Sequence record: SRR31156797_6884
DNA length: 64,000 bases
Reading direction: 5' to 3' (one strand)
The notes under the pieces were generated by a model that searched no databases, was not told the origin of the DNA, and was given only the letters and a program-made list of their open reading frames with translations. Both the position numbers and the translations under genes were made by a program. Of this stretch, positions 9,037 through 49,924 are shown one piece after another (within the stretch, counting starts at the first letter, position 1; each line of letters starts with the position of its first letter).

Positions 9037-9399
9037 TTATTGCCAAAAATAGGCTTTCGGATCTTTTTCTATCTCGCGCATTAAAGCCGTAAGGTCACTA
9101 CTTTTTGAAAGAAATGGATACGGGACCCACAATTCTTTGTCGCTCTCCATCTCTTCTCGTGATGGAATATACAAGGCCCAGTTATGCTCTTGTTCATCGC
9201 GAACAATTCGGGCAACAATACTCGAATACTCACAATGGACTGAGTCTAGTTTATAGTGATGTTGGATAAACTGAACCCCATTATCAATAGGCTCAAAACT
9301 GCATTTACCTAAATCTACTGGCAGACTACGATTACGGCTATGACACAGAAGTTCAGCTCTACGTTCTATCTGACGCTGCAGTAAATTAATGACTGCCAT
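9037..9399 (-). CDS. Conserved hypothetical protein (DUF3024-like)
   Basis: 120 aa ending EKDPKAYFW, which resembles the DUF3024 C-terminus; GAGGGA-type RBS upstream. Confidence 0.7.
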   Translation of the reverse strand: MAVINLLQRQIERRAELLCHSRNRSLPVDLGKCSFEPIDNGVQFIQHHYKLDSVHCEYSSIVARIVRDEQEHNWALYIPSREEMESDKELWVPYPFLSKSSDLTALMREIEKDPKAYFWQ

Positions 9400-10490: not shown

Positions 10491-11165
10491 TTAGAAATGA
10501 AGCTGAATAACCGAGGTTACGACACAACCGGGACGGCGGACACCTTCAATTTCGACTTTAATTTCACGTTCAATTTCTAAACCTTTCCTGATAGGCGTTA
10601 CTTTCGATAAAGTACTCACCGCTCGTACTCGGCTGTCCACTTTAATTGGATACGGAAAACGTACCGAATTTAAGCCGATATTCACCATCATTTTTGCTGT
10701 CGGGAACAGCAACTTGTCTTCATCTACACTATCGGTCAACTTAGGCAACAACGCTAACGTTAAAAAACCATGAGCAATAGTAGTTTTAAATGGAGACTCC
10801 GCTTGAGCTCTTTCTGGATTCGTATGAATCCATTGCATGTCTTCCGTAACTGCACCAAATTGGTTGATACGATGTTGATCAACCATCATCCAATCTCCAG
10901 TATGAATCACTTCACCTACCTTTAACGCAAGCTCGTTATAGACGGCCTGAGCTTCTGGTTTTAATACGATAGGTTCAACAACAGGAGCATCTTCGTTTGC
11001 TGGCGGGTTAAATTCCTTCACCCATGAAAAAAGCTGACGGCTATTGGTTTTATCCAACAACTCCCCCCAGTACTCACGTACTGTTGGAGACATCAATTGT
11101 TTAAACTCGTTATGCTTAACTAAGTTCTCAGCATGATGTTTGAAAAGATCCGCAACTTTCATCAA
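10491..11165 (-). CDS. MaoC-family (hot-dog fold) dehydratase
   Basis: D-x-Q-W-I-H and TIAHGFLTL motifs. Confidence 0.88.
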   Translation of the reverse strand: MMKVADLFKHHAENLVKHNEFKQLMSPTVREYWGELLDKTNSRQLFSWVKEFNPPANEDAPVVEPIVLKPEAQAVYNELALKVGEVIHTGDWMMVDQHRINQFGAVTEDMQWIHTNPERAQAESPFKTTIAHGFLTLALLPKLTDSVDEDKLLFPTAKMMVNIGLNSVRFPYPIKVDSRVRAVSTLSKVTPIRKGLEIEREIKVEIEGVRRPGCVVTSVIQLHF

Positions 11166-11471
11166 AACCTCATTCTTAACTAAGAGGAAATACTAATGCC
11201 TTAATTTTGAAGCACTTCACAATAATCTGCAATAACTTTCGAGCGTACAAGCGTTCCCTGAAAGTTTAAAAATAGAATAAAAACAACACGTTAATCAATA
11301 AAACATTATTTTATTAGTGTTCAGATAAATAGAGTTAACGCTCTAAGGAAAAATTTACTGTTGACACTCAACTTACTGATATTCCTAAACTAATGAATAA
11401 TAGACAACAGATAGCATAACCGCCACCCGAAATGTCGTTTTTAAACGAAACCTGACATCACTAGCACGCAT

Positions 11472-12317
11472 TTACCCTCGCCATCGTTCCACTTTGTATA
11501 AGCCACCCAGTACCATAAATTCTTGCTCCCCTTGCAAGCTGTGGGGTAGCAAAGATTCAAAACACGCAATTTTGGCTAATGGCACCTGAACCGAAAAGAC
11601 TTTAGACCCAAAACGAAGCGCACTTTCTGGATCTGCAGTAAAAGAACTCAGGTTGTTGAACAGCTTAATGCTGTCACCGTTAATAATGTACTCCGGAATT
11701 GCACTGCAACCACGATACAAGGTTAAATGTTCGCTGCTGTACCTTAACCTCAGCTCGTGCTGACAAAAACAGTAGAGCAGGTCAAGCTGTGCATACAGTT
11801 CATTGGTATTGTATGTTGCTCGGGTACAGGCTTGTCGAAAACGTAAGTATTGCGACGTATCTGGCCCGAGCAGAGATTCACGGTGGTAGCGAGTCAGCAA
11901 TCCAAATCGGGACTCAACCCAACTTCGCCAAGCTGCACCTTGTTCGTTATCCGAATCGAACAACCAACCCAGTAATAAACGACGATAATTCACTTTAGGC
12001 CTGGGAGGAGGATCGTTGCAATCTAACTCGGTCTGCTCACTCTTACCCAAACGAAAATGAACGGCCATAAAGTTATTAAAGTACTCTAAGCGTGTTTTAT
12101 ACCCATCAGCACTGTCTAACGCACGAAACAAAGCCGAATACCAAACGTGAGTTCCATCAATCTGCAATGGAATCGGATTGGCTTGATAGGCCGTGCTCGC
12201 CAATAGCCAAGACGGTACATTACAGTGATTAAGAGGCAATGATATTTTTTGCAGTAGCTCGGTTTCAGCTTGGCTGCATAGGTAGTTAGTTGACGACGCG
12301 AAGTGACTGACTGCCAT
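11472..12317 (-). CDS. draT: DraT-family NAD+:dinitrogenase-reductase ADP-ribosyltransferase
   Basis: NHCNVPSWLLAS, GWLFDSD, WVESRFGL, QLDLLY, TLYRG, NNLSSFT and GEQEFMVLGG. These give the R-S-ExE arginine ADP-ribosyltransferase signature. Confidence 0.9.
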   Translation of the reverse strand: MAVSHFASSTNYLCSQAETELLQKISLPLNHCNVPSWLLASTAYQANPIPLQIDGTHVWYSALFRALDSADGYKTRLEYFNNFMAVHFRLGKSEQTELDCNDPPPRPKVNYRRLLLGWLFDSDNEQGAAWRSWVESRFGLLTRYHRESLLGPDTSQYLRFRQACTRATYNTNELYAQLDLLYCFCQHELRLRYSSEHLTLYRGCSAIPEYIINGDSIKLFNNLSSFTADPESALRFGSKVFSVQVPLAKIACFESLLPHSLQGEQEFMVLGGLYKVERWRG

Positions 12318-13315
12318 TAATCACCGTCCAGTGAAGCGGGTATACGTTTGTCTCTACAAGCACTGGTAAATAGCTTATCGCTCAACGCCAGAATATCATC
12401 ATGTTGATACAGTACATCGAGCCAATCTAAACGAATTGCGTCGTAACCGTAGTACGCGCCCGCTAACTGACCAGCAATGGCAGCGGTAGTATCTGCATCA
12501 TTACCTAGATTCGCAGCCGCCAGCACACAAGATTCGAAATCATCCGTGTGAATAAAACACCACAGTGCCGATTCTAAACTTTCAATAACATAACCACTGC
12601 CCGTTATCTGGTCATAACTTTTGTTAACAAAATGACCAGATTTGATGCTCGAAACTTCTTCGGTATTTGGCAAGTAGTCGATGCGACAATAAACCCCTTT
12701 GTCTTCTCCGTGAATCAAATGAACAAGGACAGAAGAGAGGAAACGGCATGCATCGATACACAACTCCGACCCGTGGGTTGTTCGGGAGCTTTCACCACCA
12801 AACGTGGTCGCATCTAACAATGAATATTGATAAAAAATAGGGATAGGTGCTAAACGCATTATAGAGCCATTACCCGAACTCCAACGCGCTTTTGAGCCAG
12901 AATATGGCTCGCCAGTTTTCATAAATCGACGCAATGCGGAAGACACTCCGACACCAACATCAAAGCAAACACCAATACTGCTCATAAATCCGTTATTCAT
13001 CCAGTCACAGTATTTGTTCATTTGGTCGAGGGCATCAAAACCTTGGCAATCAATAAGACTATGTGCGAGGCACAGTGCCATTGAAGTATCATCGGTCCAA
13101 TAACCTTTCTTCAAGCAGAAATGCCCACCGCCAACCATGTCCGTCAACGGTTTAAAAGAGCCCCGAGGTTGAAACTCCAGAGTGGTTCCAAGTGCATCGC
13201 CAACAGCTAAACCAATCAAACAGCCTCGAGAGCGATTTTGATTAGCTGTAATAGCACTTTCTGATTTGATTGAAGGTGACATAGCAGCTCCATTGCTTTC
13301 TTGACACGCAAGCAC
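12317..13315 (-). CDS. ADP-ribosylglycohydrolase (DraG/ARH family)
   Basis: GLAVGDALG, WTDDT, GNGSIMR and DADT metal motifs. Stop overlaps the draT start (TAATG). Alternative start ATG at 13282. Confidence 0.92.
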   Translation of the reverse strand: MLACQESNGAAMSPSIKSESAITANQNRSRGCLIGLAVGDALGTTLEFQPRGSFKPLTDMVGGGHFCLKKGYWTDDTSMALCLAHSLIDCQGFDALDQMNKYCDWMNNGFMSSIGVCFDVGVGVSSALRRFMKTGEPYSGSKARWSSGNGSIMRLAPIPIFYQYSLLDATTFGGESSRTTHGSELCIDACRFLSSVLVHLIHGEDKGVYCRIDYLPNTEEVSSIKSGHFVNKSYDQITGSGYVIESLESALWCFIHTDDFESCVLAAANLGNDADTTAAIAGQLAGAYYGYDAIRLDWLDVLYQHDDILALSDKLFTSACRDKRIPASLDGD

Positions 13316-13499
13316 TTCGATCCTTGAAGTGCATTTACTTGCGTAATCAAACTAGACTGCCATAAACAGAGACGTTAAAAAGCCACTAGGCTCTCAGCTT
13401 TTGCGTTCCATACATCGATAAAGTTATATACAGGTTAGCTAATATAATCTTATTACATTTACAGTATACAAACCTGTTACATCTGATTGCGTAGCAAAG

Positions 13500-15203
13500 C
13501 TACGAGCACTCAGCTCTGACCTGAAATGCTCCCATTAAGGTTCTCAACGCATTTGCTTGTACCGCTAACCCCTCACTCGCCTGAGCGGTTTCTTCGGTAC
13601 TGAGTAACACTCGGTCTCCTGAGTCTTTAATTCCTATGAGATTTTGGCTTATTTCGTCCGCAGTGACGGATTGCTCTTCACTAGCCGCTGCAACTTGAGT
13701 ATTGGATTCAGCCAGTTCAGCTAAAACGGTGGCAATTTGATTCAGTTGATGCCTTGCTTGCTGAATATACTCGGAAGTTTGACGCACTTTTGCATTACTG
13801 TGATTCATTGCATCATGAGCCTGCTCTGAACTTTTGACTAGCGTTTCGATCAAGTTTCCAATTTCATTCGTGGCTTGCTGACTTCGGGAAGCCAATGCTC
13901 GGACTTCATCAGCCACAACGGCAAACCCTCTGCCTTGCTCTCCTGCCCGTGCAGACTCGATAGCAGCATTTAAAGCTAATAAGTTGGTTTGTTCCGATAT
14001 CCCATCAACGACTTTGACAAAATCTTGTATCTTTTGCGTACTATTTTTTAAATCCAAAATCATGTTTTGAGATTGGCTTGCTTGCTCCACCAGCAAAACA
14101 GACAACTCTTGAGTCATATCAATAGTAGAGCAACCTTCTTTGACATTCGTTTCTGCACTAGAAGTAGCATAAGCAGCACTATCTGCATTGCTCGCCACTT
14201 CGGTGATAGTCGCGGCCATTTCCGTCATGGCCGAAGCAACTTGTTCCGTATTTTCCTGCTGAACTTGCATTGCCTCCCTATTGTTTTCTGCAACAGCGGA
14301 TAACTGTGTTACGGTAGCAGCAATCGCATCAGTTCGACTCATCACCTCACCAATCATTTCACTCAGAGAATTTGCCATGACGTTCATGCTCGACATCAAC
14401 TGGCCAATTTCATCGTTCGATTTCACTTCGATTACTTGGTCAAAATTACCCTGTGCCATACTCGCTGCAACATTTCGAGCTCGATTCATCGAATTCACAA
14501 TTCTGCGACTAAATAAGATGCCAACCGTTAAACCAAAAATAATCGAGACACTAGAAAGTATCACCATACCAATCAAAGCTTCGTGTTCTTCTTCTTCCGT
14601 CACTGATACAGCATTCTCTGTCGCATCTTCTAAGCCGACTAAAAAATTAGCCAGTTCTTCGTTAAGTATTTGTTGAGTTGCCTCAAACTTGTGGACAACC
14701 GAAGCCATTGCCGCATTGTCTTGTTTCTCTTCCAATGCATCCAATATAGAAAATAAAGTTTTCTCATAGCTTTTGTGGTGCTCTTCAAGCTGAGCCAAAT
14801 TTCCGGTTAATTGAGTAAGATGGTCGAACTGTTTCGTGGTAATCGCGTGTTTTTTTGCTTCCATAAGCAATGACCTAGCATCGACGATTTCCTCATCAAA
14901 ATACAATGACGATTGCCTGACTTGAGAGATAAATTTAGCCATTTCTTGCTGACTCTCCCCCGAAGAAATCTCGGCTAACCGAAAGGCTTTTTCTAACAGC
15001 ACAGCACCTTCCAACTGCTTGATCGTGATATTACTCGCGAGCTTGACCAGAGGTAAGTTTTCATGGGCTATACCATTAATCTCTTGGGCAACACGCTCCA
15101 TCTTAATAACCGCATAAGAAGAAACGAGTAAGGTCGAAACAAGTAACGTGACGATTAGCCCGACCAGTTTCTTTGTAATTGTAAGGTTTCTAAGCCAGCT
15201 CAT
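13500..15203 (-). CDS. Methyl-accepting chemotaxis protein
   Basis: Two TM helices, HAMP domain, [31 protein letters not shown]. Confidence 0.95.
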
Positions 15204-16818: not shown

Positions 16819-17892
16819 TTAAGATTGCTTAGCATCTTTCACTGCTGCATCCCATACACCCAAAATGTACATGATGCCGAGTGCGCGGTCATAAAGTCCA
16901 TAACCCGGACGAGCCCATTGTTCTTCGCCCCAGATATGACGACCGTGATCCGGACGCACATAACCGCTATAACCATGTTTATGTAGTGTTTGCACGACTT
17001 TCACTGTATCCACGGAACCATCGCACGCACGGTGAGATGCTTCAATAAAGTCACCATTTTCATAACGTTTCACATTACGAATATGCATGAAGTGAATGCG
17101 ATCGTGGTAGGTGTCGATGATGTCAGGGATGTCGTTGTTCGCTGACCCCAGCGAGCCAGTGCACAGGCTTAAACCATTGTATGGGCTATCAACCAAATTC
17201 AGGAAACGACCAATGTTTTCTTTGTTGATGATTAAGCGTGGCAGACCAAAAATAGGGAATGCAGGATCATCAGGGTGAATACCCATCTTGATACCCACTT
17301 CTTCACACACTGGAATCACTTGTTCAAGGAAGTATTGTAGGTTCTTCCACAGGTCTTCGGCGGTGAAACCGTCGTACTGTTCAAATGTTTCTTTCAAACG
17401 AGCCAAGCGTTCTGGTTCCCATCCCGGCATCGTTACATCAACGTTAGTAGACAGCTTTTCAATCAGTTCCATTGGGTCGATGTTAGCAATCTGACTTTTT
17501 TCAAAGAACAATGCATTTGAGCCATCTTCCATCTCTTTGTAGAGATCTGTACGAGTCCAGTCGAATACCGGCATAAAGTTATAACAAACGACTTTTACGC
17601 CCACTTTTGCCAAACGGCGCAGTGTCTCTTTGTAGGTTTCAATATATTGATCGCGAGTGGGCAAGCCCAGCTTGATGTCTTCGTGAACATTAACACTTTC
17701 TACCACATCAATATTAAAGCCAGCAGCTTCAATGATCGCTTTCTCTTTGGCAATGCGTTCTTCACTCCAAAGCTCACCTGCGGCCATATCGTGCAGTGAC
17801 CATACTATGCCTTCTACACCCGGGATTTGTTTAATGTTACCTAGGGTGACTTTATCGTTACCCTCGCCATACCAGCGAAATGTCATCTTCAT
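16819..17892 (-). CDS. uxuA: Mannonate dehydratase (short form, copy 1)
   Basis: Start moved to MKMTFRWYG; VVESVNVHE, CYNFMPVFDWTRT, HPDDP, RPDHG. Confidence 0.93.
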   Translation of the reverse strand: MKMTFRWYGEGNDKVTLGNIKQIPGVEGIVWSLHDMAAGELWSEERIAKEKAIIEAAGFNIDVVESVNVHEDIKLGLPTRDQYIETYKETLRRLAKVGVKVVCYNFMPVFDWTRTDLYKEMEDGSNALFFEKSQIANIDPMELIEKLSTNVDVTMPGWEPERLARLKETFEQYDGFTAEDLWKNLQYFLEQVIPVCEEVGIKMGIHPDDPAFPIFGLPRLIINKENIGRFLNLVDSPYNGLSLCTGSLGSANNDIPDIIDTYHDRIHFMHIRNVKRYENGDFIEASHRACDGSVDTVKVVQTLHKHGYSGYVRPDHGRHIWGEEQWARPGYGLYDRALGIMYILGVWDAAVKDAKQS

Positions 17893-17893
17893 T

Positions 17894-19384
17894 TTATAAA
17901 TTCCTCTCAACGACAAAGCTTGCAACCGATGACTTAGCCCCGTCCGCAAACAGCTTTTCTAATGCTGATTGCAGTGTTGCTCTCAATATAGGGTTACTCG
18001 CCAATTCTTTATCAAATACGCTTTGCAGCGATAAGAAACCATCCACTACTTTTTCTAAATCTGAACCCGCTTGTTGCCATACTTGGGCAAGCTGTTGTTT
18101 TAGCGGATCCTGTACATCAATTTCTTGCTCTTGTTCATCAACTCCACTGACGTAACGCATCCAGCCAGCCAATGCCAGACACAGGCCTTCAATAGATATG
18201 CCGTTGTCTAATGAATAATGGATAGTTTGCAGGAAGCGTTGTGGGATCTTCTGCGTACCGTCCATTGCAATTTGCCAAGTGCGGTGCTGTAGAGCCGTGT
18301 TTTCATAACGTTCAATAAGCTGAGTTTTGTACTCATTCAGGTCAATACCTTCAATTTGAACTGAAGGCGTGATCTCAATATCCATCAGATATCTGACGAA
18401 CAGTTTAAAATTCGGATCCTGAATGGTTTCGGCAACAGTCTCATAGCCAGACAGATAGCCAAGATAGGCCATCGTCGAGTGCGTGCCATTGAGCAGGCGA
18501 AGCTTCATCTCTTCGAATGGCACCACATCATTCGTTACCTGTACATTGGCAATAGATGTTTTTTCCCATTCTGGACGGTCACTAACAAATTTGTCTTCAA
18601 TGACCCATTGCAGAAAAGGTTCAGTCATTACACAGGACTTATCTTCCATGCCTAATGCTGCTTCAATACGCGCGATGTCATTCTCTGTCGTGCGCGGAAC
18701 AATACGGTCTACCATGGTGCAAGGGAACTTCATATTTCCCTTAACCCAGTGATAAAATTCTTCATCCAATTGTTGTGCAAACTGTAATACGACTTTTTCT
18801 AGCACGTGACCATTTTCAGGCAGGTTGTCACAACTCAATGGAGTAAATGGGGCGATACCATTTAAATAACGATAACGCATCGCAGACACCAAAAAGCCAA
18901 TCGCAGATTTAGGCTGTTCGATGTTCTCTAAATCGTGTTGAATTAATGGATGGTTCAGGTCTAGGTCACCAGAGGCAGGGTTGTGACAGTAACCTTTTTC
19001 CGTCACAGTCAAAGAAACCACTTTAACCTGCGGATCACACATGTATCCCATCACTTGTTCAATTTGACTCGAATTTAATACTGTTTCGATAGCGCCAACA
19101 ACATTCAAATCAAGCTGACTATTGTAGCCAACACCTACAGAATAAAGGCAGTCTTGAGCTAGCATGTCTTTCTGTAAACCGACAGCACTCCAAGTCACAC
19201 CGACTATTTTCCAGTCACCACCTTTTTCTTTGATTACAGCATCGGTAATTAAAGCTTGATGAGCACGGTGGAAAGCACCAAATCCCAAATGAACAATCCC
19301 AACTTTGGCTTTTTTATTATTTTCGTTGGGTTTTACCGAGGCATTAGCCTCAGATAAATAAGCTTGACTTAATCTCATAATCAT
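17894..19384 (-). CDS. Mannitol dehydrogenase-family fructuronate reductase (UxuB-like, copy 1)
   Basis: IVHLGFGAFHRAHQA, MVDRIVP, KLRLLNGTH, QIAMDGTQK. Confidence 0.88.
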   Translation of the reverse strand: MIMRLSQAYLSEANASVKPNENNKKAKVGIVHLGFGAFHRAHQALITDAVIKEKGGDWKIVGVTWSAVGLQKDMLAQDCLYSVGVGYNSQLDLNVVGAIETVLNSSQIEQVMGYMCDPQVKVVSLTVTEKGYCHNPASGDLDLNHPLIQHDLENIEQPKSAIGFLVSAMRYRYLNGIAPFTPLSCDNLPENGHVLEKVVLQFAQQLDEEFYHWVKGNMKFPCTMVDRIVPRTTENDIARIEAALGMEDKSCVMTEPFLQWVIEDKFVSDRPEWEKTSIANVQVTNDVVPFEEMKLRLLNGTHSTMAYLGYLSGYETVAETIQDPNFKLFVRYLMDIEITPSVQIEGIDLNEYKTQLIERYENTALQHRTWQIAMDGTQKIPQRFLQTIHYSLDNGISIEGLCLALAGWMRYVSGVDEQEQEIDVQDPLKQQLAQVWQQAGSDLEKVVDGFLSLQSVFDKELASNPILRATLQSALEKLFADGAKSSVASFVVERNL

Positions 19385-19439
19385 TCGAACCGAATCTTGT
19401 TAATACCTGCAAATAGAACAATTTGCTCGGGAAGAAAGT

Positions 19440-19470
19440 AAATAGCGTGGAGTAAGTCTCCACGCTATTT
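19440..19470. terminator. Intra-operon hairpin after dctP
   Basis: AAATAGCGTGGAG...CTCCACGCTATTT. Confidence 0.6.
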
Positions 19471-19480
19471 ATAGTTCAAA

Positions 19481-20443
19481 TTACATTGCTTGAACTTTGT
19501 CTAGTAGAGGAACTAGATCTGGGTTTTCTTTACGGAATTTTTCGTAAACAGGTTTAACTGCTTCCTGGAATGCAGGAATGTCACTTTCTACGAATTGAAC
19601 ATTGAAGCCTTCTAGCTCACCCTTCGCTTTTTCTACGTAGTTTGCCCAGTTAGTTTCTTGCTCTTTCACTGTTTCTTTCGCGATTTCACGCACTTTAGCT
19701 TGGTCTTCAGCTGATAGCTTATCCCAAACACTTGTAGACACTACAAGTACGTCTGGAACCATAGTGTGTTTGTCGTAAGAGTATGTTTTCTTCACTTCAT
19801 AGTGACGAGACGAGAAGTACGATGGAATGTTGTTCTCTGCACCGTCAACAACACCTTGTTGCAGTGCTGAGTATAGTTCACCGTATGGTAGTGGAACCGG
19901 AGTACCGCCTAGTGCTTTAATCGTATCGATAGAAAGCGCTGAGTTTTGAACACGGATTTTCAGACCTTTCAAATCTTCAGGAGTACGAATTGGCTTATCT
20001 GTGTAGAAGCTACGTGCACCTGCATCAAGGAAAGCTAGACCGATAAAGCCAGATTTTTCAGAAGACGCTAGAATTTGCTCACCAATTTCACCTTGAAGAA
20101 CCGCATCATATTGAGCACGGTCACGGTATAGGTACGGTAAAGATAGCAGTTTGTAGTCAGATGCAAATGCTGTTAATGGAGCCGCACTTACTTTAGTGAA
20201 ACCAATTGTTCCGCCCTGAACCATTTGTAGCAATTCAGTTTCGTTACCTAGCGTGCCGTTTGGATAAACTTTTACGCGTAAGCTAGTTTCTTTAGTTACT
20301 TTTTTCGCAAAATAATCTAGTGATGAGTGTACTGGGTGCTCAGTCGGTAGAGAGTGCGCCAGTTTAGCAGTAGCAGCGTAAACGTTACCGGCCATAAGTG
20401 TAGAGATTGTACAAGCAAGTAAAAGTTTTTTATTAAGTTTCAT
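19481..20443 (-). CDS. dctP: TRAP transporter substrate-binding protein (DctP family, probably hexuronate)
   Basis: Signal peptide; DLKGLKIRV, GELYSALQQGVVDGAEN. Confidence 0.92.
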   Translation of the reverse strand: MKLNKKLLLACTISTLMAGNVYAATAKLAHSLPTEHPVHSSLDYFAKKVTKETSLRVKVYPNGTLGNETELLQMVQGGTIGFTKVSAAPLTAFASDYKLLSLPYLYRDRAQYDAVLQGEIGEQILASSEKSGFIGLAFLDAGARSFYTDKPIRTPEDLKGLKIRVQNSALSIDTIKALGGTPVPLPYGELYSALQQGVVDGAENNIPSYFSSRHYEVKKTYSYDKHTMVPDVLVVSTSVWDKLSAEDQAKVREIAKETVKEQETNWANYVEKAKGELEGFNVQFVESDIPAFQEAVKPVYEKFRKENPDLVPLLDKVQAM

Positions 20444-20455
20444 TTTATAGTCCTA

Positions 20456-21820
20456 TCAATATTGAGGTTTATAACCAGCTAGTTCCGGTAGCCATAATGA
20501 AAGTGAAGGGAACAAAGTAACTATCGTCAACGTGATGACCATGAGGACGAATAGTGGTAACAATTTAGGAACAACTGAACCTAACTTACTACCTGTTACA
20601 CTACAACCAACGAACAGCGCTGTGCCTACTGGTGGTGTACAGATACCAATACATAAGTTAAATACTAAGATGATCCCAAAGTGTACTGGGTCAATACCAA
20701 GTGTCATTGCAATTGGTAAGAAAATTGGTGTGAAGATCAGTACCGCTGGCGTCATATCCATAAAGGTACCAACCACTAACAAAATCAGGTTCATCAATAA
20801 GATAACCATGATTGGGTTCGTTGATGTTTCTAATACGAAATCTGCGATTTGTGTTGGAATGTCCGCGTTTGCCATCGCCCAAGACATCGCTGAAGACGTT
20901 GCAACCATTAACAGTACGATTGACGTTGTAATAACACTGTCTACCAATACAGGAAACAAATCGTTGAGCTTCAGTTCACGGTAAGCAAAACCCAGGAACA
21001 GTGCATACACTACAGCGATAGCTGATGCTTCTGTTGCTGTGAAAATACCGCCAAGAATACCACCCATGATAACGATAACCAGAGTCAAACTTGGAATCGC
21101 ATCCCAGATAACTTTACGCTTTCTCTCTGTCTGAATGATTCTGTCACGAGGGATGTTGTATTTTTTACCCAGTAAAAAGATACCAACCATCACACTCAAA
21201 CCCATCATAATCCCAGGAATGTAACCCGCAATGAATAGGTATTGAACAGAAGTGCTACTGACAAGAGCAAACAAGATCAAAATGTTTGATGGCGGAATCA
21301 AAAGACCAGAAGGACAAGACGCAACGTTAACGGCTGTTGAAAAGTCCATTGGGTACTTACGTTCTTCCTGCAGTGGCTTCATGATACCACCAACCGCAGC
21401 AGCAGAAGCCGTTGCCGAACCAGACAAAGAACCAAACAACATGTTTGCCATTACGTTCACGTGTGATAGAGAACCCGGTAAACGACCACCAAAGATCATT
21501 ACAAAGTTAATCAGACGTGAAGCAAGACCGCCTCGGTTCATCAAGTTACCGGCCACAATGAAGAACGGCAATGCGAGCAAGCCGAAGTTATCCAGACCGT
21601 TAGCCAGTTTCTGTGAAACCAAGATGGTTACGTGTTCTACAGGGAAATCGATAAATACTGTAAACAGAGCCGCGATACCAATTGAGAACGCAATTGGTAC
21701 ACCAACTAATAGTAGTATCCCTAGAACACCGAACAGGACAAATACAGGGAAAAAGTTATAAAAAGCATCAGGAGCATTATCTAAAAACTCAGCTGAAAAT
21801 AATAAATCCATCAAAGTCAT
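20456..21820 (-). CDS. dctM: TRAP transporter large permease
   Basis: LLALPFFIVAGNLM, GSLSGSA, LIPPS, TPPVG. Confidence 0.93.
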   Translation of the reverse strand: MTLMDLLFSAEFLDNAPDAFYNFFPVFVLFGVLGILLLVGVPIAFSIGIAALFTVFIDFPVEHVTILVSQKLANGLDNFGLLALPFFIVAGNLMNRGGLASRLINFVMIFGGRLPGSLSHVNVMANMLFGSLSGSATASAAAVGGIMKPLQEERKYPMDFSTAVNVASCPSGLLIPPSNILILFALVSSTSVQYLFIAGYIPGIMMGLSVMVGIFLLGKKYNIPRDRIIQTERKRKVIWDAIPSLTLVIVIMGGILGGIFTATEASAIAVVYALFLGFAYRELKLNDLFPVLVDSVITTSIVLLMVATSSAMSWAMANADIPTQIADFVLETSTNPIMVILLMNLILLVVGTFMDMTPAVLIFTPIFLPIAMTLGIDPVHFGIILVFNLCIGICTPPVGTALFVGCSVTGSKLGSVVPKLLPLFVLMVITLTIVTLFPSLSLWLPELAGYKPQY

Positions 21821-22353
21821 TTTGAATATCCTTCTGCTGTAACTCGATTGTCTTTATTCGTCAACATAAGAATTGAAGTAATGATGTCGACAATACCGAA
21901 GTAAGTAATAATGTAGCCAGCAAGTGGTACGACAACATATACGTACCCAATCAAAAGGTGTTCTCCACCGATAACGATGCCCGGAGAAATCTGACCATGT
22001 TGCAGCGTGTTACTTACCAGAGCATGCCCACCATAAATGAAGGTGACAGCGGAAAAAGCGATAACAACAACATTGATAAAAATACCAAGGATGAGTTGTC
22101 CTCTATCACCTAACTTTGAATGTAAGAGCTCCAGAGCTAAGTGACGTTTAACTGCAAAGGTATAAGCGCCACCTAGTACACCAATCCAGATTAATAAATA
22201 GCGAGACAGTTCATCAGTAAAATTTGATGGGTCTTGCATAACGAAACGAGTGAATACTTGCCAAACAACCGTAATAATCATCACGGTCATAAATACGCTT
22301 AAGACAACGCGTAATAAACTGTTTATATAAGAGTTTATAGACTTAATTATCAT
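21817..22353 (-). CDS. dctQ: TRAP transporter small permease
   Basis: Start moved to MIIKSIN; WQVFTRF...DELSRYLLIW; four TM helices. Confidence 0.88.
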   Translation of the reverse strand: MIIKSINSYINSLLRVVLSVFMTVMIITVVWQVFTRFVMQDPSNFTDELSRYLLIWIGVLGGAYTFAVKRHLALELLHSKLGDRGQLILGIFINVVVIAFSAVTFIYGGHALVSNTLQHGQISPGIVIGGEHLLIGYVYVVVPLAGYIITYFGIVDIITSILMLTNKDNRVTAEGYSK

Positions 22354-22528
22354 AGTAATTAATCTCTTAAAGTTGTTTTGTTCCCATCTGATCGCTATGC
22401 ATAATCCTTTACTACATAACCAATCAGTTGGCACTTCCCTGAATAGTGTGTGTCGCTTGCAATCTTCACAAAGTACTATTCGTAAACTATTGTCACTTGA
22501 ATAACCAATGACTGTGCTAATCCTACAT

Positions 22529-22540
22529 TTGGTATAACAA
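22529..22540. promoter_or_regulatory. ExuR/UxuR-type operator
   Basis: TTGGTATAACAA, the exact reverse complement of the site at 28022-28033. Confidence 0.7.
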
Positions 22541-22735
22541 TAAAAAATTGGTCTAAGTCATGAAACGAAACAGTCTTTCATTTTTTTGTGTAAAGTATGA
22601 TCACCTTTAAACTTTTGACAAAAAACTCACTTTACTGGGTCATTAATTAATCAAAACGGCGCTTAAATCATGTTTATTTCCATATTTTGCATTTAATATC
22701 GCACACAAATGGTAGAACAAATAAGGACAACCTGT

Positions 22736-24148
22736 ATGACATCTTTTCTTTCGGAGGATTTTTTACTCCACAACGAGTTTGCTAAGCGTCTATATCACGA
22801 AGTAGCAGCGGATTTACCTATCATCGACTACCACTGTCATCTACCGCCTCATCAGGTATCAACAGATTATCGATTTGAAAACCTGACAGATATCTGGCTT
22901 CGCGGCGACCATTACAAATGGCGTGCAATGCGAATCAACGGTGTAGATGAGCGTTTCTGTACTGGTGATGCATCAGATAAAGAGAAGTTTTTAGCCTTCG
23001 CTCGTACGGTTCCGTACACAATTGGTAACCCTATCTATCACTGGGCACATTTAGAACTGCGTCGTCCATTTGGTATATCAGGTATCGTACTAAATGAAGA
23101 CACCGCTGAACGCGTGTGGAATGAAACTAACGAAATGTTAGCAACGCCAGAATTCAGCGCGCGTTCTATCATGCAGAAAATGAATGTTGAGATGGTGGGT
23201 ACAACCGATGACCCAATCGACGACCTTTCTGCTCATAAAGTCGTTGCTGAAGATAAAGACTTCCCAGTACAAATGCTTCCTAGCTGGCGACCAGACAAAG
23301 CGTTCAATGTTCACCTAGAGACATTCCCTGCTTATATAGAAGCACTTTCTAAAGCTGCCGATGTTGACATTACACGCTTTGCTGATTTGTGTGATGCATT
23401 AGATAAACGCCTACAGCACTTCGCAGATCACGGTTGCTGTGTAACGGACCACGCTTTAGATACGGTTTGTTATGAAGATTCAACAGAGCAAGAGTTAGAC
23501 GCAATTCTTGCAAAACGTCTAAATGGTGGCGAAGTTTCAGAATTCGAAACTGCACAGTTTAAAACTGCAGTATTGGTTTACCTAGGTAAAGAATACGCGA
23601 AACGCGGTTGGGTTCAGCAATACCATATTGGTGCTCTGCGTAACAATAACGAACGTATGTTCAAACTGTTAGGCCCAGATACTGGTTTTGATTCTATTAA
23701 TGATGGTTTGGTTGCAATGCCTTTAGCACGTCTTCTTGATGCGCTGGATCGTGACAATGCACTACCGAAAACCATCCTTTATGGATTAAACCCTCGTGAC
23801 AACGAAGTGTTAGCGACCATGTGCGGCAACTTCCAGGACGGTAGCATCGAAGGCAAGATCCAATTCGGTTCTGGCTGGTGGTTCAACGACCAGAAAGACG
23901 GTATGGAACGTCAAATGACTCAGCTAGCTCAACTTGGTCTGTTAAGCCGCTTCGTTGGTATGCTAACTGACAGCCGTAGCTTCATGTCTTACACGCGCCA
24001 TGAATATTTCCGTCGAATCCTTTGCCAAATGATTGGTAAATGGGTTGAAGATGGTGAAGTTCCTGCTGATTTCGAGCTACTTAGCCGCATGGTCAGAGAC
24101 ATTTGCTACTACAACGCAAAAAACTACTTCGGTATCACCGCTAAATAA
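22736..24148 (+). CDS. uxaC: Uronate isomerase
   Basis: [30 protein letters not shown]; start at MTSFLSEDF with AAGGA RBS. Confidence 0.97.
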
Positions 24149-24216
24149 CACTTTCTGCTGTTGATGCTTTGACTCGTCCTCAGGCTTCAACAGCAGCCTT
24201 TCTACAGGTAATTCAT

Positions 24217-25677
24217 ATGAAACAGCTAAACCGTGACACGTATCCCGGTCCATCTTATCCGACCAAAATCATTCAATTTGGTGAAGGTAACTTTCTACGT
24301 GCATTTTTAGACTGGCAAATAGATCAACTGAATGAACACACTAATTTCAATGCTGGTATCAGTGTTGTTCGCCCAATTGATACTGATTTCCCACCAAGCC
24401 TGAACACTCAGCAAGGAATCTACACCACACTGATTCGTGGTTTAGACGAAACTGGTCAGGCAGTTTCTCAATCACGCATCGTTTATTCTGTAAACGAAGA
24501 GCTTTCTGCTTATCGTGATTTTGCAAACTTACTACAGCTATCTCGTGATCCTGAAACCAAGTTTGTTTTTTCCAATACCACTGAAGCCGGTATTGCATTT
24601 GTACCAAGTGATCAATTAGATGATGTGCCACCGAGCAGCTACCCAGCCAAGCTGACACGCATGCTGTGGGAACGATACACCCATTTCAGTGGTGCCGAAG
24701 ACAAAGGTTGGATCATCGTTCCATGTGAACTGATTGACTACAACGGAGAATGTTTGAAAGAAATCATTCTGCGTTATGTTGACACATGGCAACTGCCTGC
24801 AGAATTTAAACAATGGGTCGAAAGTGCCAATACATTCTGTTCAACACTCGTTGACCGTATTGTTACAGGTTATCCAAAAGATGAAGTCAGCCAGCTAGAA
24901 TCAGAACTGGGTTACCAAGATACCTTCATGGTGAGCGCTGAAAACTTCTACCTGTTCGTTATTCAGGGTCCACAATGGCTAAATCAGGCATTGTGCTTAG
25001 ATCAACTCAGTTCAGAACAGTCACTCAACATCAAGATCGTTGATGACATCAAACCCTATAAAGAACGAAAAGTAGCCATTCTTAATGGTGCACATACCGC
25101 TTTAGTACCCGTGGCTTTCCAGTCTGGTATTGATACGGTTGGCGAAAGTATGGCTGATGAACAAATGGCTGCTTATCTGAAAGAAGTCATGTTCTCAGAG
25201 ATCATTCCAACATTGTCATTACCAAAAGATGAGCTGAATGCCTTTGCACAAGATGTGGAATACCGATTTAAGAATCCTTACATCAAACACCTATTGCTGT
25301 CGATTTCACTGAACAGCATGACAAAATTCAAAACTCGAATTTTGCCTCAATTATTAACGTACCAAAAAACCACTAACGAACTGCCACGTTACTTAAGCTT
25401 CGCGCTTGCGGCGTTAATTACTTTCTACCGTGGGGAACGTCAAGACGGCAACTATCCGCTTAACGATGACCAACCATGGTTAGATCTCTTCGCTTCAGAG
25501 TGGCCGAAAGTTACATCAGGTGAAGCAACGTATGCTTCTTTGGTGAATACCGTATTGGGCGATGCTACTCACTGGGGAGAAGATTTGACTCAAATACCAG
25601 GACTTGCAGAGTGTGTCACTGCCCATGTTGAGCGTATCTGCCAACTCGGTATGCGAGAAGCACTTGCTGGCTGTTAA
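24217..25677 (+). CDS. uxaB: Tagaturonate reductase (altronate oxidoreductase)
   Basis: [41 protein letters not shown]. Confidence 0.96.
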
Positions 25678-25686
25678 GGAGAGAAT

Positions 25687-27174
25687 ATGAACTCTTTAAT
25701 TAAAATTCACCCAGCAGACAATGTCGCCGTTGCACTTCAGGATTTGAGCGCCGGTACGACAGTGGTTGTTGATGATCAAGAAATCGTATTGCTTGAGGAT
25801 GTACCTCAGGCACACAAAGTTGCACTGCAAACTTTTGCTCAAGATGAACTGGTCATCAAATATGGCTGTCCGATCGGGCATGCGCTGCGTACCATTGAGT
25901 TTGGCCATCGTGTGGACCAAGACAATATTCGTACTAACCTAAGTGACTTAAACGAATATCAGTATGAGCCTGAATTCCAAACGGTAAACAGTGCACTTGA
26001 AAACAAACCGGTGAATATCTACCGTCGTGCAAACGGTGATGTCGGTATCCGTAACGAATTGTGGATTATCCCAACGGTTGGTTGCGTCAATGCCATGGCC
26101 AACATGATGAAAAAGCAATTCGAATCTGAAGTTGATATGTCATTGATTGATGGTGTACAGGTATTTACTCATCAATACGGCTGTTCTCAGTTGGGCGACG
26201 ACCACAATAACACTAAGCTTCTGCTTCAGAACTTAGTGAAACACCCGAACGCAGGAGGTGTTTTGGTGGTTGGCCTGGGCTGTGAAAACAATCAGGTTAA
26301 CGCATTCAGAGATACGTTAGGTGATTTTGACCAAGACCGTGTTCAATTCATGATCTGCCAAAAACAGGATGATGAAGTGGAATACGGTGTAGAGATGATG
26401 AAAAAACTCTACGAAGTGATGTCCAAAGATCAACGTGTTGAAGGACACCTAAACGAAGTTCGTTTCGGTCTTGAATGTGGTGGCTCTGATGGTTTCTCTG
26501 GTATTACAGCGAACCCACTACTGGGTCGTTTCTCTGACTATCTGGTTACTCACGGTGGTACTACCGTATTAACTGAAGTGCCAGAAATGTTTGGTGCCGA
26601 GCATATCCTAATGAGTCGCTGTGCTGACGAAAGCATTTTCGATAACACGGTTTCGATGATCAATAACTTCAAGCAGTACTTTATCGATCACAAGCAACCT
26701 ATTTACGAAAACCCATCACCGGGCAACAAAGCTGGCGGTATTTCTACTCTTGAAGAAAAATCACTGGGCTGTACTCAAAAAGCGGGATCCAGCCAAGTTA
26801 TGGACGTTCTAAAATATGGTGAACGCCTAACTAAACCAGGCCTGAACCTACTTAGTGCGCCGGGTAACGACGCTATCGCAACCTCCGCTCTTGCAATGGC
26901 TGGATGTCATATGGTGCTGTTCAGTACAGGTCGCGGTACGCCTTATGGTGGCCCCGTTCCAACATTGAAACTGGCAACCAACAGTGATTTAGCTCGTCGT
27001 AAGCCACACTGGATCGACTTCAACGCCGGCTCGCTGGTGGAAGGGACTCCAATGGATACTTTACTCGAGCAATTTGTCGACAAAGTTGCTGACTTCGTAA
27101 ACGGCGAACCTACTCGCAATGAACTGAATGAGTTCCGTGAAATCGCGGTATTCAAAAGTGGTGTAACACTTTAA
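25687..27174 (+). CDS. uxaA: Altronate dehydratase
   Basis: SAF N-terminus, GCSQLGDD, CGGSDGFSG, FSTGRGTPYG. Confidence 0.96.
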   Translation: MNSLIKIHPADNVAVALQDLSAGTTVVVDDQEIVLLEDVPQAHKVALQTFAQDELVIKYGCPIGHALRTIEFGHRVDQDNIRTNLSDLNEYQYEPEFQTVNSALENKPVNIYRRANGDVGIRNELWIIPTVGCVNAMANMMKKQFESEVDMSLIDGVQVFTHQYGCSQLGDDHNNTKLLLQNLVKHPNAGGVLVVGLGCENNQVNAFRDTLGDFDQDRVQFMICQKQDDEVEYGVEMMKKLYEVMSKDQRVEGHLNEVRFGLECGGSDGFSGITANPLLGRFSDYLVTHGGTTVLTEVPEMFGAEHILMSRCADESIFDNTVSMINNFKQYFIDHKQPIYENPSPGNKAGGISTLEEKSLGCTQKAGSSQVMDVLKYGERLTKPGLNLLSAPGNDAIATSALAMAGCHMVLFSTGRGTPYGGPVPTLKLATNSDLARRKPHWIDFNAGSLVEGTPMDTLLEQFVDKVADFVNGEPTRNELNEFREIAVFKSGVTL

Positions 27175-46339: not shown

Positions 46340-46711
46340 ATGCATATTTTGAATTGGAACGATAGCGCTATTCCACATGAATTGTGGATAGAAGAAACTC
46401 CTGCGGGTACAGCAAAACTCATTTTAAAAGTAGTAAAAGATGTAGAACCAGAAGTGTTGTCACTTGACCTACCTTGCACACCTGAGACGTTAATTGAAGC
46501 CTGGCAAGGTTATGCAGAACCGATTTCTGACGCTTATGATGACGGATACTTATATTCTCAAGTTCGTAGTCTGTTCAACCTTAAACAAGGCTGTGTGGTT
46601 TGGGCTGTAAATCATGTAAAACTGGCTGATGAAAACAAAATGTCATTCGATAGACTAGAATTCGTTCCAACGATGGTAAGTAAAGAACATCGTTTAATTC
46701 CAGCTAGTTAA
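46340..46711 (+). CDS. Hypothetical protein
   Basis: 123 aa with GAGG RBS; no recognised motif. Confidence 0.75.
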   Translation: MHILNWNDSAIPHELWIEETPAGTAKLILKVVKDVEPEVLSLDLPCTPETLIEAWQGYAEPISDAYDDGYLYSQVRSLFNLKQGCVVWAVNHVKLADENKMSFDRLEFVPTMVSKEHRLIPAS

Positions 46712-46846: not shown

Positions 46847-47476
46847 TTAAGAGTTAACCAACTCCACAGCTTCACGAGTGAGACGAGCCAACTCTTCCCA
46901 CTCTCCTGCTTCGACCAGCTTTTTATCAACCATCCAAGTACCACCACATGCCAGAACACGCGGTACAGATAGATACTCTTTAATATTGTTCGGGTTAATG
47001 CCACCAGTCGGCATAATATGAACATCACCGTAAGGCGCGAGCAGGGCTTTGACCATATTCACTCCACCAGAAGCTTCAGCAGGGAAGAACTTTAACGTGG
47101 TTAATCCCATTTCAAGAGCACCTTCAACCGCACTAGGATTGTTCACGCCAGGGATAATATCAATACCAATTTCCTGACAAGCTTTCACTGTGTTTGGGTT
47201 GAACCCAGGAGAAACAATAAACGTCGCACCCGCTTCTTTTGCCGCAATGGCTTGTTCTTTATTCAACACGGTACCCGCACCGATAAGCATATCCGGCTGG
47301 GCTTCGCGAAGCAATCGAATGGCTTCTACCGCCGCGTCAGATCTGAACGTAATTTCAGCGGCTGGTAAACCATTTTCCGCTAACACTTTACCAAGGGGAA
47401 TAATATCCTCCGCTTTATCGATAGCGATAACAGGGATAACTTTAAGTGCTTTAAGCTGTTCATTAATAACAGACAT
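46847..47476 (-). CDS. eda: KDPG/KHG aldolase
   Basis: AEITFRS, GAGTVL, LKFFPAE, MPTGG. Confidence 0.96.
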   Translation of the reverse strand: MSVINEQLKALKVIPVIAIDKAEDIIPLGKVLAENGLPAAEITFRSDAAVEAIRLLREAQPDMLIGAGTVLNKEQAIAAKEAGATFIVSPGFNPNTVKACQEIGIDIIPGVNNPSAVEGALEMGLTTLKFFPAEASGGVNMVKALLAPYGDVHIMPTGGINPNNIKEYLSVPRVLACGGTWMVDKKLVEAGEWEELARLTREAVELVNS

Positions 47477-47493
47477 AACAAGTCCTTTTAATA

Positions 47494-48450
47494 CTATTTT
47501 TGAAGCAAAACATCGGTAGCAGATTTAGGGATAATCGCACCACGATGCTGAATGATGATACCGGCAAGCGCGTTACCACGTTGACAAGATTCTTCTATCG
47601 AGCCACCAGCCAAGTAACAAGACAGAAACCCACCGTTAAATGAATCACCGGCAGAAGTTGTATCAACAACGGTTTCGACTGGTACCGTTGGGACTGAGTA
47701 GTGACATTTGGCAGCAACGTCACCAACCAAACAACCTTCTTCGCCAAGTTTGACAACCACTTTTGATACGCCAAGCTGACTTAAACGCGCTAAAGTATCT
47801 TCAGGCGTTGTATCTCCCCAGATCAGTTGTTCATCATCAAACGTGACGAGCGCCAAATCTGTTGCTTGATACATTGCCAGATAGTTATCTTTAACCGTTT
47901 TGAGTTCGTCGTTAGGCCACAATGCAGGACGATAGTTACTATCAAACGCAATCTCGACACCTTTATTCCTTAGGGTATTAAGCAGTTCAAGTAACGTAAT
48001 ACGATCTTCTTCAGGTAGGATTGCTAAAGTAATACCACTAACAAAGATCATGTCCACGTCAGATAGTGATTGTTCGATACGCTCAAAATCGGGGTGCTGC
48101 ATAACGAAGCGAGCAGCTGACTGATTGCGCCAATACAGAAAAGTACGCTCACCTTTATCATCCAATTGGATTAGATAAAGACCCGGCGTACGATGCTCAT
48201 CACGCAATACTAAACTTGTGTTGATGCCTTCGTCCTGCCAACGAGTAACAATACCGTTACTCAAAGGGTCCGTACCCATCGCAGAAACGTAGGAAATGGT
48301 AATGGGTTGATTCTCGGGGTTAAGCATACAACCGCGGCTCAGGTATACCGCGGCGTTTAGCGTATCTCCACCGAAGGTTTGATGCATAGAGCCAAACGGT
48401 TTACCGTTTAGCTCTATCATGCATTCACCAATAATAGCGATATGTTTCAT
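47494..48450 (-). CDS. kdgK: 2-keto-3-deoxygluconate kinase (PfkB family)
   Basis: IGECMIEL, GGDTLN, DSNYRPALW, DTTSAGDSF. Confidence 0.93.
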   Translation of the reverse strand: MKHIAIIGECMIELNGKPFGSMHQTFGGDTLNAAVYLSRGCMLNPENQPITISYVSAMGTDPLSNGIVTRWQDEGINTSLVLRDEHRTPGLYLIQLDDKGERTFLYWRNQSAARFVMQHPDFERIEQSLSDVDMIFVSGITLAILPEEDRITLLELLNTLRNKGVEIAFDSNYRPALWPNDELKTVKDNYLAMYQATDLALVTFDDEQLIWGDTTPEDTLARLSQLGVSKVVVKLGEEGCLVGDVAAKCHYSVPTVPVETVVDTTSAGDSFNGGFLSCYLAGGSIEESCQRGNALAGIIIQHRGAIIPKSATDVLLQK

Positions 48451-48460
48451 ACACTTCTTA

Positions 48461-49924
48461 CTACAGGGCTTCAACTGTCGCACGAGCGCCATTATTAATT
48501 AAAGACAAATACGCAGAACTCACTGCATCGATGACTTTAGGATTTTGACCAATCTCAGGTGCAAAAATCGCTTCGATAGACAGTAGAGCCGGAACAACGG
48601 ATACGTTTAATCCATGTTCATCGCACACAGCTTTCAGTTTGTCTGCCATTGGATCACACACTTCAATTTCGTTGCCTTGTTCGTCAACGGCTGATACGTA
48701 ACGCATCCAACCCGCAATTCCAGCAGCAAGCCATTTGAAATCAGAACCTTGCTCTAAATGGAAACGCAAGCTACCACCCATACGCTGAGGGATCTTCTGG
48801 CTACCATCCATCGCGATTTGCCATGTTCTGTGTTTTAAGCTTGGGTTTGTAAAGCGATCAATAAGCAAGGTTGCATAACCTTCCAGATCCGTGCCTTCAG
48901 GCATGTTTAATGACGGAGCTTGCGCTTTCATCATCATGTCCAATGCCGCTTTGCGGTAGCCTTCGTTAGTCATAGTGTCAGAGATGTGTGCATAGCCGCC
49001 AAGATAACCTAGGTATGCAAGGAACGAGTGGCTGCCATTTAACATACGCAATTTCATTTCTTCGTAAGGAACAACGTCTGCAACGAATTCTGCTCCAGCA
49101 ATATTCCAGTCTGGACGACCAGCAACAAAGTTGTCTTCGATAACCCATTGGCGGAATGGTTCACAGGCAATACCGCATGGATCTTCAACACCCAGTAGAT
49201 CTGTAATTTCATTTAATGTTTCTGGTGTTGCTGCCGGAACAATACGGTCAACCATAGTGCATGGGAATGTCACATTAGCTTCAATCCAAGCACCTAACTC
49301 CGAATCAACTAACTTAGCGAATTCCAAAATTGCCGCTTTAGCTACATGACCATTCTCTTGAACATTGTCACACGACATCACAGTGAAAGGTTTTAGGTTG
49401 CGCTCACGACGAAGTTTCAGAGCCTGAACAATATAACCTAATGCAGACTTAGGCTGAGTTGGGTTTTCTAAATCCGCTACAACTAGAGCGTTACTTTTAT
49501 CAAGCAGGCCTGTCGCAGGGTCCGCACAATAGCCTTTTTCTGTGATGGTCATTGAAACGATAGCAACTTGAGGTTCTGCCATTTTTTCAATAACAGCATC
49601 AGATCCATCAAAGGTAGGGTGTAAAGATTCACAAACAGCACCAATGACTTTAACTTCCGTTTGTTCTGCACCTTTCTCTGCAACAGTGTATAGGTGATCT
49701 TGCGCTCTTAGAGACTGAATTAACTCTTCACCGCCAAACAAATTTACTTCACAAATACCCCAGTCACTGTCTGATTTACGAGCGACTTCATCAGTAAAAA
49801 GCCCTTGGTGTGCGCGATGAAATGCTCCAAACCCTAAATGGACGATTCTCGACTTAAGCTTCGAGCGGTCGTAAGTACCGACATTAACTTGTTGGTTCAG
49901 TGAAGAATTCGATATATTTTTCAT
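48461..49924 (-). CDS. uxuB: Fructuronate reductase (D-mannonate oxidoreductase, copy 2)
   Basis: IVHLGFGAFHRAHQ, DWGICEVNL, KLRMLNGSH, QIAMDGSQK. Confidence 0.94.
   Translation of the reverse strand: MKNISNSSLNQQVNVGTYDRSKLKSRIVHLGFGAFHRAHQGLFTDEVARKSDSDWGICEVNLFGGEELIQSLRAQDHLYTVAEKGAEQTEVKVIGAVCESLHPTFDGSDAVIEKMAEPQVAIVSMTITEKGYCADPATGLLDKSNALVVADLENPTQPKSALGYIVQALKLRRERNLKPFTVMSCDNVQENGHVAKAAILEFAKLVDSELGAWIEANVTFPCTMVDRIVPAATPETLNEITDLLGVEDPCGIACEPFRQWVIEDNFVAGRPDWNIAGAEFVADVVPYEEMKLRMLNGSHSFLAYLGYLGGYAHISDTMTNEGYRKAALDMMMKAQAPSLNMPEGTDLEGYATLLIDRFTNPSLKHRTWQIAMDGSQKIPQRMGGSLRFHLEQGSDFKWLAAGIAGWMRYVSAVDEQGNEIEVCDPMADKLKAVCDEHGLNVSVVPALLSIEAIFAPEIGQNPKVIDAVSSAYLSLINNGARATVEAL

Follow-up and report, generated by a model that had tools for sequence, protein, structure and literature searches.

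What is known of the post-translational switch-off of nitrogenase comes almost wholly from alpha- and betaproteobacteria. In the draTG or draTGB systems of Rhodospirillum rubrum, Azospirillum brasilense, Rhodobacter capsulatus and Azoarcus, a transferase, DraT, is paired with a hydrolase of the ADP-ribosylhydrolase (ARH) fold, DraG. A hydrolase also accompanies an arginine transferase with the R-S-E signature in the Tre1/Tri1 type VI pair of Serratia proteamaculans (PDB 6DRE/6DRH), and ARHs occur as stand-alone proteins in Thermus thermophilus (2CWC) and, with a DUF6508 extension, in Vibrionaceae. The subject of the present analysis is a stretch of 64,000 nucleotides from record SRR31156797_6884, hereafter the window, in which the stop codon of an ARH gene overlaps the start codon of a gene for a DraT-family NAD+:arginine ADP-ribosyltransferase. 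To judge from sequence comparison, this presumed eraser and writer of arginine ADP-ribosylation probably form, as a translationally coupled two-gene operon, the post-translational off/on switch of nitrogenase in a diazotrophic Vibrio. The pair is most likely a lineage-specific variant of DraT/DraG, which would differ from the described systems in a hydrolase that is not orthologous, in the coupled, hydrolase-first order of the genes and in behaving as a mobile cassette.

For the marine lineages, little is available for comparison in the literature covered. NCBI uses the name DraT for proteins of Vibrio, Agarivorans, Celerinatantimonas and Shewanella, and calls the hydrolase just 'ADP-ribosylglycohydrolase family protein'. 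According to the available part of a 2026 preprint, the model species Vibrio natriegens is without DraTG (PMC13252129), and a second preprint of the same year records draT in 18 of 25 putative diazotrophic Thalassolituus, with draG unmentioned in the portion of text available (10.64898/2026.08.28.747955). Freshwater Proteobacteria have draT and draG close to nif according to the accessible part of a 2020 paper (PMC7341956). No report of a DraT with a non-DraG hydrolase, or with a reversed coupled order, was found for Vibrio or its relatives in a search whose coverage ended short of subscription journals and supplements; nor was any found that joins 'Vibrio diazotrophicus' with draT or draG, most subscription journals again lying outside the coverage.

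The two enzymes compared with described systems

The transferase shares both its Pfam family and its R-S-ExE signature with the canonical DraT proteins. Its match to DRAT (PF07357) scores 269.1 bits against a gathering threshold of 25 (E = 4.1e-80) and extends over profile positions 2-255 of 256, and the signature is present as R202, S225 and E264-x-E266. Of 159 DraT sequences aligned (the window's own, 13 from related loci, 27 from the loci of a canonical sample and 118 database homologues), 99% or more keep each of these four residues, and alignment A2, with 67 rows, shows no variation at E264 or E266. An intact DraT with its signature retained, as the original prediction had it, is thus what the full-length DRAT match bears out. 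The dN/dS value against the nearest relative is 0.062. The AlphaFold model of the protein (pLDDT 87.4, pTM 0.87) retrieved almost exclusively R-S-E ADP-ribosyltransferases, with matches that were weak in Foldseek (best E 0.016, nothing at or below 0.001) and that in VIA-align, where Z reached 4.8 at most (none of 5 or above), are too weak to strengthen the Pfam assignment. For the N-terminal helical half, the fold search gave no clear match.

Unlike the canonical proteins, the window's DraT belongs to a separate clade of marine Gammaproteobacteria. In the DraT tree this clade takes up 28 of the 56 rows with a support of 99 and stands apart from the 27 rows of the canonical sample; its members score lower against the Pfam profile, at 213-296 bits versus 312-369 bits for that sample. 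Across 300 evenly sampled genomes of the class, the other 14 DRAT matches belong without exception to the high-scoring canonical type (314-354 bits), and only two of them have an ARH within 1.5 kb, in both instances a DraG-like one.

The partner of the transferase matches Pfam ADP_ribosyl_GH with 251.3 bits. Counted from the ATG at position 13282, its residues E36, T63-D64-D65-T66, D108, H170 and D262/D264/T265, which we take to be the binuclear metal site, are invariant over 55 sequences that include 12 canonical DraGs, so that in this respect too the locus is like the DraT/DraG switch: a transferase is paired with an ARH-fold hydrolase whose metal site is intact. As far as sequence can tell, both enzymes are intact and possess their catalytic residues. 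The likeness does not extend to orthology. The window's ARH is only 28-32% identical to the 12 canonical DraGs, and it scores 163.2 bits against the NCBIfam equivalog for DraG (TIGR02662), well below the cut-off of 337.05. None of the genomes carrying the 13 related loci has a match above that cut-off, the best ones (151-178 bits) being the DraT-adjoining ARHs themselves; in other DRAT-positive Pseudomonadota, a canonical DraG scores above it in 27 of 29 genomes. Against solved structures in the PDB, the ARH scores 236 bits with Tri1 (6DRE) and 217 with the T. thermophilus ARH (2CWC), and 124 and 105 with the DraGs of R. rubrum (2WOC) and A. brasilense (3G9D).

A quick maximum-likelihood tree of 41 ARH rows gives the same picture. 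Fourteen DraT-coupled ARHs and two divergently oriented ones form a clade (support 99), which joins 11 Vibrionaceae ARHs without a DraT neighbour (support 91), while a long branch of their own holds the 12 canonical DraGs. The window's ARH is thereby placed in the same branch as the stand-alone ARHs, and is 44-53% identical to those of Vibrionaceae. The stand-alone proteins differ in not lying beside a transferase and, in some, by a C-terminal DUF6508 extension: those checked have C-terminal extensions, identified as DUF6508 in two of four, and are without the N-terminal plug of Tri1. Scores and tree together indicate that the ARH is not a DraG orthologue and comes from the ARH branch nearest to Tri1 and the Thermus enzyme, a point that the original prediction overlooked. 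Displacement of DraG by another ARH would be the simpler reading; it is not proven, because the tree has no root other than two very distant ARHs. Given this other branch and the failed equivalog cut-off, DraG-style regulation and membrane sequestration are not to be assumed for the window's ARH.

The Tre1/Tri1 pair also combines a hydrolase with an R-S-E arginine transferase, and Tri1, an ADP-ribosylarginine hydrolase, is the best solved relative of the ARH and also its best NCBIfam model. Unlike Tri1, however, the ARH falls below the cut-off of the corresponding NCBIfam model (NF041672, 317.9 bits against 490) and has no N-terminal extension of the kind that occludes the toxin's active site: the match starts at position 62 of 361 in the model and at residue 69 of Tri1, and only some 14 residues precede the ARH domain. 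The transferases differ as well, the window's being a DRAT protein to which Tre1 is only a weak fold match (Z 3.6), and no secretion-system genes were found in a Pfam scan of all 54 non-overlapping open reading frames (ORFs) of at least 90 aa in the window. The resemblance to an antitoxin-toxin pair that the original prediction had noted extends no further than the layout: the ARH has an immunity protein as its nearest solved relative but is without the plug of that protein. A prediction of the ARH-DraT complex from alignments A3 and A2 returned a score of 0.00, 'no answer', which is evidence neither way.

Gene order likewise separates the locus from the canonical systems. In 27 of these, draT is followed by an adjacent draG in four, the two genes are adjacent and convergent in eight, DraG lies 2-11 kb away in ten and on another contig in five. 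The hydrolase-first, co-directional order of the window is found in none. Canonical DraT, moreover, usually abuts nifH, whereas some 250 kb separate the two in those close relatives of the window in which the distance can be measured.

Distribution of the pair and its association with nif

Relatives of the window's DraT, at 62-87% identity, were found at 13 loci in species-representative genomes, 11 of Vibrio and one each of Agarivorans and Shewanella mangrovi. All 13 genomes contain nifH above the cut-off of NCBIfam TIGR01287. Co-occurrence with nif across the Vibrionaceae, which the original prediction had named as a check, was then counted in 401 evenly sampled genomes. DRAT is present in 22 of these and nifH, above its cut-off, in 42; nifH accompanies DRAT in 22 of 22 genomes, DRAT was found in none of the 359 others, and 20 nifH genomes are without it (Fisher p = 5.6e-25, a value that ignores shared ancestry). 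Since the sampled genomes come without completeness figures, 'not found' does not here equal 'absent'. In the samples drawn, this DraT subfamily is thus confined to genomes with nifH, as in the DraT/DraG switch, and in some Vibrionaceae it lies inside the nif cluster. The arginine motif CAGRG, which we take to be the target motif of NifH, occurs in the NifH of all 13 relatives and is not discriminating.

In five of the 22 genomes (G170, G313, G273, G318 and G011) DraT lies 9-10 kb from nifH. In the case of G318 and G011, the DraT some 10 kb from nifH belongs to the same coupled ARH-DraT pair as that of the window. In G313 (L076:10493-11317) and G170 (L078:10662-11549), DraT lies on the same strand inside an apparent nif cluster with no adjoining hydrolase. 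The sizes and order of the ORFs there fit nifHDK...nifEN...(DraT)...nifUSV, an arrangement in which only nifH is confirmed by a profile and the other names are a reading. A very distant ARH (114-120 bits with Pfam, undetected with the window's ARH) lies 23-40 kb away in both. In the closest lineage with measurable distances (G005, G010, G311 and G299), DraT and nifH share a contig but lie 248-255 kb apart, and a window of 64 kb would for this reason not be expected to show nif genes.

The wider phylum shows the same association. A sample of 401 Pseudomonadota contains 29 DRAT genomes besides G001, of which 26 have nifH above the cut-off and one more has a nifH truncated by a contig end. The DRAT genes of the two nifH-less genomes are damaged, by an internal stop in G683 and by reduction to a fragment of 162 aa in G594, and DraT seems to decay where nif is missing. 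These remnants lie at G683:C8:44116-45084, beside a partial DraG, and at G594:C29:4084-4521 (loci L061 and L062).

For the organism of the window itself, the evidence is indirect and comes from run X1, which contains all sampled words of the pair and could be where the window originates. High-depth contigs of this run (about 3500) span a relative's whole nifH locus (L020, 3825 bases) at some 94-97% identity over long pieces. A second set of contigs, of depth about 553 and more diverged (127 of 739 and 229 of 1218 letters differ), covers L020:1-1930 and could represent a second copy of the nifH region or a second organism. The run is consistent with the window's organism carrying nifH, the presence of both in one genome being not proven. 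Genome G001, with two P-II genes, possesses the usual sensors.

The ARH accompanies DraT closely. It is directly upstream of DraT in 12 of the 13 related loci, and in all 12 the two genes either overlap or are separated by no more than 14 nt, with TAATG in three and ATGA or longer overlaps in others. Among the 401 Vibrionaceae, 15 genomes have an ARH with 62% identity or more; every one of them is DRAT-positive, and the ARH always lies upstream on the DraT strand; DRAT-negative genomes have none, and 15 of the 22 DRAT-positive genomes therefore carry the ARH directly upstream. The two genes are the sole families common to the 13 neighbourhoods, which represent at least seven different contexts, and clustering of the ORFs of these 13 loci found no third conserved neighbour such as a draB-like gene. 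The ARH is a dedicated partner that moves with DraT as a two-gene cassette. Its mean column identity is 62%, versus 45% for DraT.

Departures from this arrangement are of two kinds. In G327 (L074:4349-6199) and G377 (L075:4314-6197), an ARH of the same clade, 53% identical, is divergent from DraT; that of G377 has two in-frame stops, one TGA and one TAA, and may be a pseudogene. Five further genomes (G010, G299, G170, G313 and G273) have no linked ARH of the clade. In G010 (V. plantisponsor, L010:8196-10849) and G299 (L080:4422-7114), the neighbourhood is that of the window's pair, in the order MCP-DraT-MaoC, with the ARH cleanly absent and DraT intact. No gene of the ADP_ribosyl_GH family was found anywhere in G010, and the only one in G299 is distant and lies on a different contig. 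Between these two genomes, dN/dS for DraT is 0.113.

Layout of the operon and its surroundings

The span 11472-13315 consists of two minus-strand ORFs, 12317..13315, as listed for the ARH, and that of DraT, and they meet as the original prediction described, in the order eraser then writer: the ARH stop codon TAA (12319-12317) and the DraT start codon ATG (12317-12315) share one base. The extent given for the ARH stands in part. Both ORFs lie exactly where they were placed, but the GTG at 13315, which would give a protein of 332 aa, is probably not used, the start being probably the ATG at 13282. This ATG is favoured because a GGAG lies 5 bases ahead of it and because it gives the same length as the two closest homologues (92% and 86% identity, both 321 aa). 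The positions of the features are collected in the following table.

Features of the ARH-DraT locus, in positions of the window
Feature	Position	Strand	Remarks
ARH (ADP-ribosylhydrolase), presumed arginine-ADP-ribose eraser	12317..13282	minus	321 aa from ATG 13282
DraT-family NAD+:arginine ADP-ribosyltransferase (writer)	11472..12317	minus	281 aa; Pfam DRAT
TAATG stop/start overlap of ARH and DraT (translational coupling)	12315..12319	minus	the sequence itself
GGAG Shine-Dalgarno, 5 bases ahead of ATG 13282	13288..13291	minus	the sequence itself
Near-perfect palindrome with 9-bp arms, ARH 5' leader	13312..13332	.	terminator scan, + strand
Weak terminator-like hairpin, 43 nt past the DraT stop	11408..11429	minus	consensus match only

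The hairpin beyond DraT is likely to be the 3' end of the two-gene operon. The palindrome, which reads GCACTTCGA-TCC-TTGAAGTGC on the + strand, precedes the likely ARH start by 30-50 nt and is kept in part in L001; it may serve as an operator or form a hairpin in the leader. Beyond it, at a further distance of about 30 nt, is a TATGGCA motif common to the window, L001 and L005. A scan for sigma-70 consensus promoters ahead of the ARH gave none on the coding strand; inspection by eye gave no sigma-54 promoter of the GG-N10-GC form, a rule that TATGGCA does not fit, and no NifA or NtrC site was established there.

Pfam confirms the siting of the pair between an MCP gene upstream (13500..15203, MCPsignal and HAMP) and a MaoC-domain gene downstream (10491..11165), as well as the absence of nif, glnB/glnK and amtB that had been noted for the 64 kb. 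No nitrogenase, P-II or ammonium-transporter family is represented among the 54 ORFs scanned, and in a tblastn search of the window with 47 ORFs from the nifH, P-II and nif-cluster loci of relatives, DraT alone matched. The GC contents of the two genes (0.446 and 0.459) are like those of their flanks (0.431 for the window), with no signal of horizontal transfer. The remaining ORFs are ordinary chromosomal ones, for sarcosine oxidase, SHMT, an RNase II-type nuclease, hexuronate catabolism, TRAP and Tct transporters, and LysR and GntR regulators.

A DUF3024 protein (9037-9399) is encoded two genes from the pair. The hexuronate/hexonate genes form two separate catabolic clusters (16819-27174 and 46847-52775), each equipped with a separate GntR/FCD regulator and with a transporter, of the TRAP type in one cluster and of the Tct type in the second, and together containing two UxuA dehydratases (16819-17949 and 51594-52775) and three oxidoreductases of the mannitol-dehydrogenase family (17894-19384, 24169-25677 and 48461-49924). 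ORFs of 336, 123, 125 and 90 aa (56064-57074, 46340-46711 and 62381-63081) have no Pfam match at E <=1e-5.

Function of the pair and its significance

By homology with the DraT of Rhodospirillum and Azospirillum, whose switch is treated in a review (PMC8120803, in the part available), the arrival of ammonium or a fall in energy would lead DraT to use NAD+ and to place one ADP-ribose on the conserved arginine, in the CAGRG loop, of the NifH dimer. NifH so modified would no longer dock on the MoFe protein. Once conditions reverse, the co-translated ARH, as a metal-dependent ADP-ribosyl-arginine hydrolase, would remove the group. From the overlap of the codons it follows that synthesis of the transferase entails that of the hydrolase. 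NifH as the target in this organism, control of the pair by P-II and the role of the ARH as the physiological reverser are all suggested by analogy with these systems. A nitrogenase switch-off in a diazotrophic Vibrio was one of the two possibilities that the original prediction had raised, and it gains support from the co-occurrence with nifH (13 of 13 and 22 of 22 genomes) and from the siting in nif clusters in some.

Several observations weigh against this interpretation. Shared phylogeny enters into the co-occurrence counts, the hydrolase scores below the DraG equivalog cut-off, and neither a consensus scan nor inspection by eye revealed a recognisable promoter of sigma-54 or NifA type upstream of the ARH. 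There is no nif gene in the window, and the case for nifH in its own organism relies on run X1, in which more than one organism may be present. Lastly, G010 and G299 keep DraT under purifying selection without a linked hydrolase, G010 being without any gene of the ARH family. The ARH is therefore dispensable to whatever keeps DraT selected, and this leaves room for a role of the ARH other than that of a regulated 'on' switch.

One such role is that of a safeguard, in which DraT targets NifH and the co-translated, Tri1-like ARH would clear stray or basal arginine ADP-ribosylation and so make a potentially toxic transferase safe to carry, with nitrogenase recovering mainly through new synthesis of NifH. 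The ARH is nearest in sequence to an immunity protein and groups with generic ARHs that have no DraT neighbour and not with DraG, the hydrolase-first overlap guarantees hydrolase alongside transferase, DraT persists under constraint without this ARH in G010 and G299, and the ARH beside DraT in G377 has two stops. A mere safeguard, however, fits poorly with how well the ARH is conserved, better than DraT itself, and with its co-inheritance with DraT in 15 of 22 genomes. The plug with which Tri1 obstructs its toxin is also missing from the ARH, whose alignment starts only at Tri1 residue 69, and a DraT dangerous enough to need an antidote should not persist in hydrolase-less lineages; on balance we regard this role as improbable. 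Still less probable, and judged very unlikely, is the other possibility raised in the original prediction, a repurposed reversible ADP-ribosylation module or toxin-antitoxin (TA) pair with a target other than NifH. The distance of some 248-255 kb from nif in G005, G010, G311 and G299, the occurrence of the cassette in at least seven neighbourhoods and the antitoxin-toxin-like layout would suit such a module, and the available part of the review cited above terms DraT/DraG a 'domesticated' TA system (PMC8120803). The strict association with nifH, which the original prediction had named as part of what would refute the repurposing idea, speaks against it (DRAT in none of the 359 nifH-less Vibrionaceae), as do the location in or beside nif clusters in five genomes and the decayed remnants in genomes without nifH; the base composition is like that of the flanks, no secretion genes are among the window's scanned ORFs, and PADLOC-DB has no defence model matching, with zero families for either ARH or DraT at E <=0.01. 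That the pair is an inactive relic with no current function is hardly credible: the missing promoter consensus upstream of the ARH would suit it, but both reading frames are intact, all catalytic residues are kept, dN/dS is 0.062 and coupling is retained across 12 loci.

A nitrogenase switch thus remains the preferred reading, and it can tentatively be extended, as something possible rather than probable, to an independently assembled switch. On this proposal, the diverged DraT would have discarded DraG and recruited an ARH of the Tri1 branch by non-orthologous displacement, the two becoming a co-translated mobile cassette in which the ARH lies outside sequestration by AmtB-GlnK. Lineages without the ARH, such as those like V. 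plantisponsor, would then have a one-way 'off' switch that is reset only by the synthesis of new NifH.

About half of the sampled Vibrionaceae that carry nifH (22 of 42) have DraT, mostly together with a hydrolase other than DraG. If the pair acts as proposed, marine heterotrophic diazotrophs of the genera Vibrio, Agarivorans, Shewanella, Psychromonas and Celerinatantimonas would be able to shut off nitrogenase within minutes, and such rapid switch-off would bear on how N2 fixation responds to pulses of ammonium, as well as on the engineering of Vibrio as ammonium-excreting chassis strains. The pair would also represent a natural experiment in which the eraser of a reversible modification has been swapped, and the lineages without the ARH would allow one to ask whether an eraser is needed at all.

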